Below, piece by piece: positions 23,543 to 23,998 of a stretch of 64,000 nucleotides of DNA. The stretch is taken from the sequence record MT446421.1, one strand, 5' to 3'. The DNA is from Escherichia virus TH55. Made by a program: the position numbers and the translations under genes. The notes under the pieces are model-generated. The model ran no database searches and was not told the DNA's origin. It saw nothing but the letters and a program-made list of their open reading frames with translations. How positions within the stretch are numbered: the stretch's first letter is position 1; each line of letters begins with the position of its first letter.

Positions 23543-23998
23543 CTACTTTAAATCCGCCGACCAATTTAATTTTAGCGGTTCTTTATATTCACGGTCTAAA
23601 ACAACCGGAATCTGAACTTCTCCTTTATACGTCAAAGGACCAACATTATAAGACAATGTTATATGAGGAGTATAGTCCGGGAAATCATGTGTTGCGCCAA
23701 TGGCTCGTGCATACATATGTCTGCAACTAAGATAATCTGAATCCAGTACAAGAACCAGCGTGCTGCCGTCGTCGGTTTTCCATACTTCCAGGTGACCAGA
23801 GTTGGCTACTTCGAAACTACCGGAAGCAACAACATATGGAATATTTACTCTGGAATAACAAATAGTGGAATGGAATTTTTCGCGAGGAACGGGGTTAGGT
23901 ACCTTAAGAGAGCGCTGGAGATTTTCCAGCGCATCAAGAGTTAATTCTGAAAATTTGGCTGCAACATAAAGTCCTTCAGAGACTTCATTTAATGTCAT
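23543..23998 (-). CDS. 57B: 2H-phosphoesterase, Acb1-like (anti-CBASS nuclease homolog)
   Basis: 151 aa; two H-x-T motifs (H43-S-T, H112-I-T); sits upstream of 57A-1-3-2-4 as 57B does in T4. Confidence 0.65.

Follow-up and report, generated by a model that had tools for sequence, protein, structure and literature searches.

Identity of the gene at the 57B position

Does the small gene next to gene 57A in Escherichia virus TH55 encode an anti-defence protein, or the RNA ligase that its database label suggests? In the window (the whole stretch of 64,000 nucleotides analysed here, record MT446421.1), this position is occupied by an ORF of 151 codons (Table 1), whose product had been taken for an Acb1-like 2H phosphoesterase by a sequence-only reading. 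The comparisons below make a functional Acb1 (anti-CBASS protein 1), as known from T4-like phages, the very likely product of the gene; it would be a small, metal-independent 2H phosphoesterase. The G+C content of acb1 was 41.0%, compared with 40.6% for the window.

The protein matched the Pfam family Acb1 (PF23474) with 200.6 bits (E 1.2e-59; curated cut-off, 27 bits). Residues 8–148 aligned with positions 1–143 of the 144 in the profile, and the match was thus full-length and above the curated threshold. The only other Pfam match, to 2_5_RNA_ligase2, was below the threshold (11.9 bits, E 0.24). In the PDB, the top match was 7T26/7T27, named Acb1 (E 7.3e-63 over residues 9–147), behind which ranked 9Q2G and 9Q2Y, Acb1 structures that are more distant. 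Both top entries are Acb1 of Erwinia phage FBB1, 7T26 in the apo form and 7T27 in complex with 3'3'-cGAMP (Hobbs et al., 2022, Nature 605:522; PMC9117128), and the window protein was ~70% identical to this crystallised protein over 139 residues. The best PHROG match was PHROG 755 (E 3.3e-65), which is labelled "RNA ligase."

The experimentally defined Acb1 of T4 is gp57B, which was purified by following the cleavage of 3'3'-cGAMP and protects against CBASS (PMC9117128). An alignment to this protein had been proposed as a check; T4 gp57B (NP_049750.1) and the window protein aligned end to end with no gaps, and 126 of 151 residues (83%) were identical, with 91% positives (E 3e-99). By these sequence comparisons the 151-aa ORF is an ortholog of T4 gp57B/Acb1. 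The proposed Acb1-like identity was upheld by this orthology, by the Pfam score and by the functional residues kept in the predicted protein.

Table 1. Positions of acb1, its predicted functional sites and neighbouring features in the window.
Feature	Position	Strand	Basis or remark
acb1 (gene 57B) CDS	23543..23998	minus	ATG start, 151 aa plus stop; ORF listing
First catalytic motif, H43-S-T45 (= T4 H44/T46)	23864..23872	minus	script; invariant in 8-sequence alignment
Second catalytic motif, H112-I-T114 (= T4 H113/T115)	23657..23665	minus	script; invariant in 8-sequence alignment
C-terminal lid, residues 144–151 (LNWSADLK), incl. W146 (T4 W147)	23546..23569	minus	gap-free alignment to T4 LDWADDLK
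Gene 57A (tail-fibre chaperone)	23998..24234	minus	Pfam GP57, E 4.6e-25; phrog_1002
TATAAATA, T4 late-promoter consensus	24445..24452	minus	inside gene 1, ~210 bp upstream of 57A
Sigma-70-like TTGACA-18-AATATT	24472..24443		consensus match; overlaps TATAAATA
HNH homing-endonuclease gene	25593..26267	minus	phrog_655, E 8e-58
HNH homing-endonuclease gene	27500..28207	minus	phrog_655, E 6.6e-61
TATAAATA, back-to-back pair	28226..28233	minus	overlaps the next motif
TATAAATA, back-to-back pair	28230..28237	plus	overlaps the previous motif
Tandem ORF downstream of acb1	23146..23478	minus	
Tandem ORF downstream of acb1	22865..23137	minus	
Tandem ORF downstream of acb1	22614..22856	minus	
Tandem ORF downstream of acb1	22303..22557	minus	

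Catalytic motifs and ligand-contact residues

A script found H43-S-T45 and H112-I-T114 as the only H-x-[ST] motifs of the window protein; their codon positions were checked by hand, and both stood where they had been placed before. When the same residues were shuffled 10,000 times, two or more H-x-T motifs also turned up in 295 cases (~3%), and therefore the motifs by themselves are modest to weak evidence. It is the homology to the Pfam family, to PDB 7T26 and to T4 gp57B, and not the motifs alone, that puts the gene far beyond chance.

In T4 Acb1, the HxT/HxT tetrad comprises H44, T46, H113, and T115, and the H44A/H113A protein served as a catalytically dead control (PMC9117128). The tetrad of the window protein (H43, T45, H112, and T114) was in register with those of T4 and FBB1, column for column. 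The sequence-only reading had staked its proposal in part on the catalytic histidines, and H43 and H112 aligned exactly with H44 and H113 of T4. Base stacking in T4 Acb1 involves Y12, W74, F107, and W147, with E141 contacting the adenine N6; the lid formed by residues 145–152 closes over bound 3'3'-cGAMP, and W147 stacks on a base (PMC9117128). With numbering shifted by −1, all nine of these residues were kept (the tetrad plus Y11, W73, F106, W146, and E140). An alignment of eight sequences from Straboviridae comprised the window protein and its homologs from T4, FBB1, Proteus PM2, Acinetobacter AB-Navy97, Aeromonas AS-gz, Vibrio D485, and RB16. In this alignment, whose most distant member had 38% identity, Y11 and all four residues of the tetrad were invariant.

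The likeness to T4 Acb1 covered the tetrad, the four stacking aromatics, the adenine-reading Glu and the C-terminal lid, without any indel. The N-terminus of the window protein was shorter by one residue, and the protein differed by 25 substitutions, none of them at the named functional positions. The catalytic motifs of FBB1 Acb1 were identical to those of the window protein, whereas FBB1 had Phe and Tyr at the positions of W73 and F106 shared by the window and T4 proteins (conservative aromatic swaps) and a one-residue insertion after position 79. A single-sequence AlphaFold2 model was unusable (pLDDT 37.4, pTM 0.30), so the 2H fold was taken from the homology to the solved structures 7T26/7T27; the compact 2H phosphoesterase fold would be transferable from them at this level of identity.

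Proposed function and mechanism

The T4 and FBB1 orthologs carry out metal-independent cleavage of adenosine-containing cyclic oligonucleotides, including 3'3'-cGAMP and cUA as well as cAAA, though not cGG (PMC9117128). For the window protein, the most likely function judged from homology is to cut cyclic di- and trinucleotides that contain adenosine, likewise independently of metal. A cyclic di- or trinucleotide would be held in a U-shaped pocket in which Y11, W73, F106, and W146 stack on the bases, and apart from one adenine the binding would be largely independent of base identity. The C-terminal lid would shut over the ligand, and E140 would read the adenine N6. In the strained ligand, the 2'-OH of the adenosine would then attack the 3'-5' bond by acid-base chemistry at the H43-x-T45/H112-x-T114 tetrad, and the ring would be opened through a 2',3'-cyclic phosphate intermediate to give a linear product with a 3'-phosphate. 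During infection, the signals made by host CD-NTases (3'3'-cGAMP, cUA, cAAA, and cAAG) would be destroyed before the CBASS effectors fire.

The substrate range is not guaranteed to equal that of T4 Acb1, since 25 of 151 residues differ. It was considered whether Gaprivervirus carries an Acb1 allele with a shifted range, for example one that spares the decoy nucleotides of Panoptes or that extends to other cyclic oligoadenylates. If true, this might explain why acb1 is more constant between the genera than its essential neighbours. The sequence gave no pointer in this direction, as the known ligand-contact residues were all unchanged, and we regard such a shift as improbable.

Alternative explanations

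Two other readings of the gene were weighed. The protein could be a LigT-type 2'-5' RNA ligase, or a 2',3'-cyclic nucleotide phosphodiesterase acting on RNA ends in RNA repair or tRNA processing. The label of PHROG 755, a name copied by many GenBank records, speaks for this, as do the faint match to 2_5_RNA_ligase2 and the 2H fold common to both families; in addition, the T4 gene is close to the tRNA cluster. The window protein does have the hallmark of the superfamily to which the LigT/2'-5' RNA ligase families (PF13563, PF02834) belong, that is, two H-x-T/S motifs, but it is much smaller and has the Acb1-specific lid and stacking residues. These residues, which are specific to the binding of cyclic oligonucleotides, were all kept. 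The match to PF13563 was confined to residues 91–121 around the second HxT, and its 11.9 bits fell below the cut-off of 27; membership of this family was rejected on that score. Weak LigT-family matches were also reached by more distant Acb1 homologs, such as the protein of Vibrio phage D485. The T4 ortholog, at 83% identity, cleaves 3'3'-cGAMP and protects against CBASS (PMC9117128), while the "RNA ligase" label describes the superfamily and not a tested function. An RNA ligase or RNA-end phosphodiesterase is hence very improbable here.

The gene might instead be decaying or have shifted in function, so that it has ceased to counter CBASS, and it might be tolerated because Acb1 activity is a liability under Panoptes. 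Depletion of their decoy nucleotide by Acb1 sets off Panoptes guard systems, which Tevenvirinae escape by inactivating acb1; active Acb1 is selected against under Panoptes, both natural and laboratory loss-of-function alleles are found in Tevenvirinae, and acb1 of phage Bas43 carries a nonsense mutation (PMC13577387). The 25 substitutions relative to T4 Acb1 could be read in the same direction. However, the frame in TH55 was intact and full-length, and the catalytic and ligand-contact residues were all in place. The dN/dS of ~0.07, the higher identity to T4 than that of gp57A, gp1, gp3, and gp2 (83 against 51–71%) and the presence of the gene at ≥99% identity in ~30 phage records also argue against decay, which we hold to be very unlikely. 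A functional Acb1 is the reading that we prefer over both.

Genomic context

The gene order on the minus strand was 4, 2, HNH endonuclease, 3, 1, 57A, and acb1, followed by several internal-head-protein genes. Gene 1, encoding a dNMP kinase, was recognised among the neighbours with E 7e-77, and genes 3, 2, and 4 were also present. The gene had been placed in the 57B slot upstream of a 57A-1-3-2-4 block. The neighbours were as described, but all of these genes lie on the minus strand, and in the direction of transcription 57B is downstream of 57A. The gene set of the block was likewise confirmed, while its continuity was not: two HNH homing-endonuclease genes break into it, the first separating genes 3 and 2 and the second lying beyond gene 4, before the divergent gene 53. 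These two genes were paralogous, and both belonged to phrog_655 (Table 1). T4 has no HNH gene at either of these positions. The one between genes 3 and 2 shares its last or first 19 nt with gene 2, at the 3' end of the latter.

Gene 57A was immediately upstream of acb1 in the direction of transcription. As in T4, acb1 took the slot directly after 57A in the 4-2-3-1-57A-57B block, and the adjacency of 57A and 57B was shared by T4, RB16, PM2, AB-Navy97, AS-gz, and D485, which stand for six other genera of T4-like phages. The stop codon of 57A overlapped the start codon of acb1 by 1 nt (TAATG), compared with 4 nt in the T4 record. This overlap suggests translational coupling, and 57A and acb1 probably share a transcript as well as being coupled in this way.

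Directly downstream of acb1 were four small tandem ORFs on the same strand (Table 1). Their N-termini were MNIKTYNEFLAE, MKTFNEFFNE, MKTYQTFITE, and MKTYQEFINE, which we take to resemble the capsid-targeting sequence of T4 internal proteins that is cleaved by the prohead protease. Three of the four matched PHROG families of internal head or virion proteins, and the fourth matched only phrog_3966, of unknown function. Together they form an array of diversified internal-protein genes where T4 has ipI. The product of ipI in T4 is an injected anti-restriction protein, and the location of the array suggests that acb1 adjoins a second likely anti-defence hotspot.

Promoter and terminator motifs

The scans for promoters and terminators recorded consensus matches only. 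The motif TATAAATA was found 20 times in the window, where 5.1 occurrences were expected. The copy inside gene 1 was overlapped by a sigma-70-like TTGACA-18-AATATT, and it is a possible promoter for 57A and acb1, as judged from the consensus. In T4, 57B has been reported to be expressed mainly at the middle and late stages (10.64898/2026.03.30.715471), and similar timing may be expected for the window gene. Terminator-like sites were not enriched in the scan over shuffled sequences (6 vs. 4.6), and the scan found none directly after acb1. Two TATAAATA motifs overlapped back to back on opposite strands in the divergent intergenic region between the block of HNH gene and gene 4 and gene 53.

Distribution and selection

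Across the 2.6 kb that were compared, Escherichia phage UPEC07 (Straboviridae, Tevenvirinae, Gaprivervirus) was 100% identical to the window. The phage belongs to Gaprivervirus and not, like T4, to Tequatrovirus. The corresponding CDS of UPEC07 (QUL77597.1) was 100% identical and is annotated as "RNA ligase/cyclic nucleotide phosphodiesterase," and in the 99.4% identical phage EAWsc9 the gene is named "anti-CBASS protein Acb1." The earlier suggestion of a discovery is unsupported, since the gene already stands in public records under the name of Acb1 or cyclic nucleotide phosphodiesterase. By tblastn, a homolog was detected in 1,478 phage records, of which ~30 had ≥99% identity.

In the comparison with T4 by the Nei-Gojobori method, dN was 0.135 and dS was 1.95, giving a dN/dS of 0.069, a ratio that is approximate because dS is near saturation. 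This points to strong purifying selection on acb1, although such estimates are rough at this divergence. The amino acid identity to T4 was 83% for acb1, compared with 56% for gp57A, 51% for gp1, 51% for gp3, and 71% for gp2 (window 23543–27085); the accessory acb1 was thus more conserved between Gaprivervirus and T4 than its essential neighbours 57A, 1, 3, and 2. Recent horizontal transfer was considered for this greater similarity and was unsupported, as dS was near saturation, which makes strong purifying selection the simpler explanation; dS values at such divergence are unreliable. The product of gene 3 in the window was 23 aa longer than T4 gp3.

Implications and a portal-fused Acb1 domain

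The gene is an intact and ordinary representative of an anti-defence family that is well characterised. Biochemical, structural and genetic work defined Acb1 in 2022, Pfam has a separate family for it, and the exact sequence found here had already been deposited and annotated. The practical value of the assignment lies in annotation and prediction, and the "RNA ligase" label that the gene widely carries is misleading. With acb1 intact, the phage is predicted to resist CBASS systems that signal through adenosine-containing cyclic nucleotides. It is also predicted to be vulnerable to guard systems of the Panoptes type, which sense when cyclic nucleotides are depleted (PMC13577387, PMC12657218). 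These two predictions bear on which phages to choose for the therapy of E. coli strains whose defence repertoires are known.

An Acb1 domain was also observed in a different setting. In Pseudomonas phage psageK9 (NC_074661.1), gp70 (1552–3351; 600 aa), encoded directly after the terminase, joined a portal domain, Pfam Phage_portal_3, at residues 38–385 (E 5e-89) to an Acb1 domain (PF23474) at the C-terminal residues 457–598 (E 1.9e-43). Both HxT motifs and the LYV tyrosine were kept in this domain, and the C-terminal lid was absent. A literature search on Acb1 and portal protein returned no paper describing such a fusion. The window Acb1 also matched residues 498–586 of the Pam3 portal protein structure 8HDS weakly (E 0.14). 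An Acb1 domain fused to the portal, and hence borne by the virion, would be there as the DNA enters.
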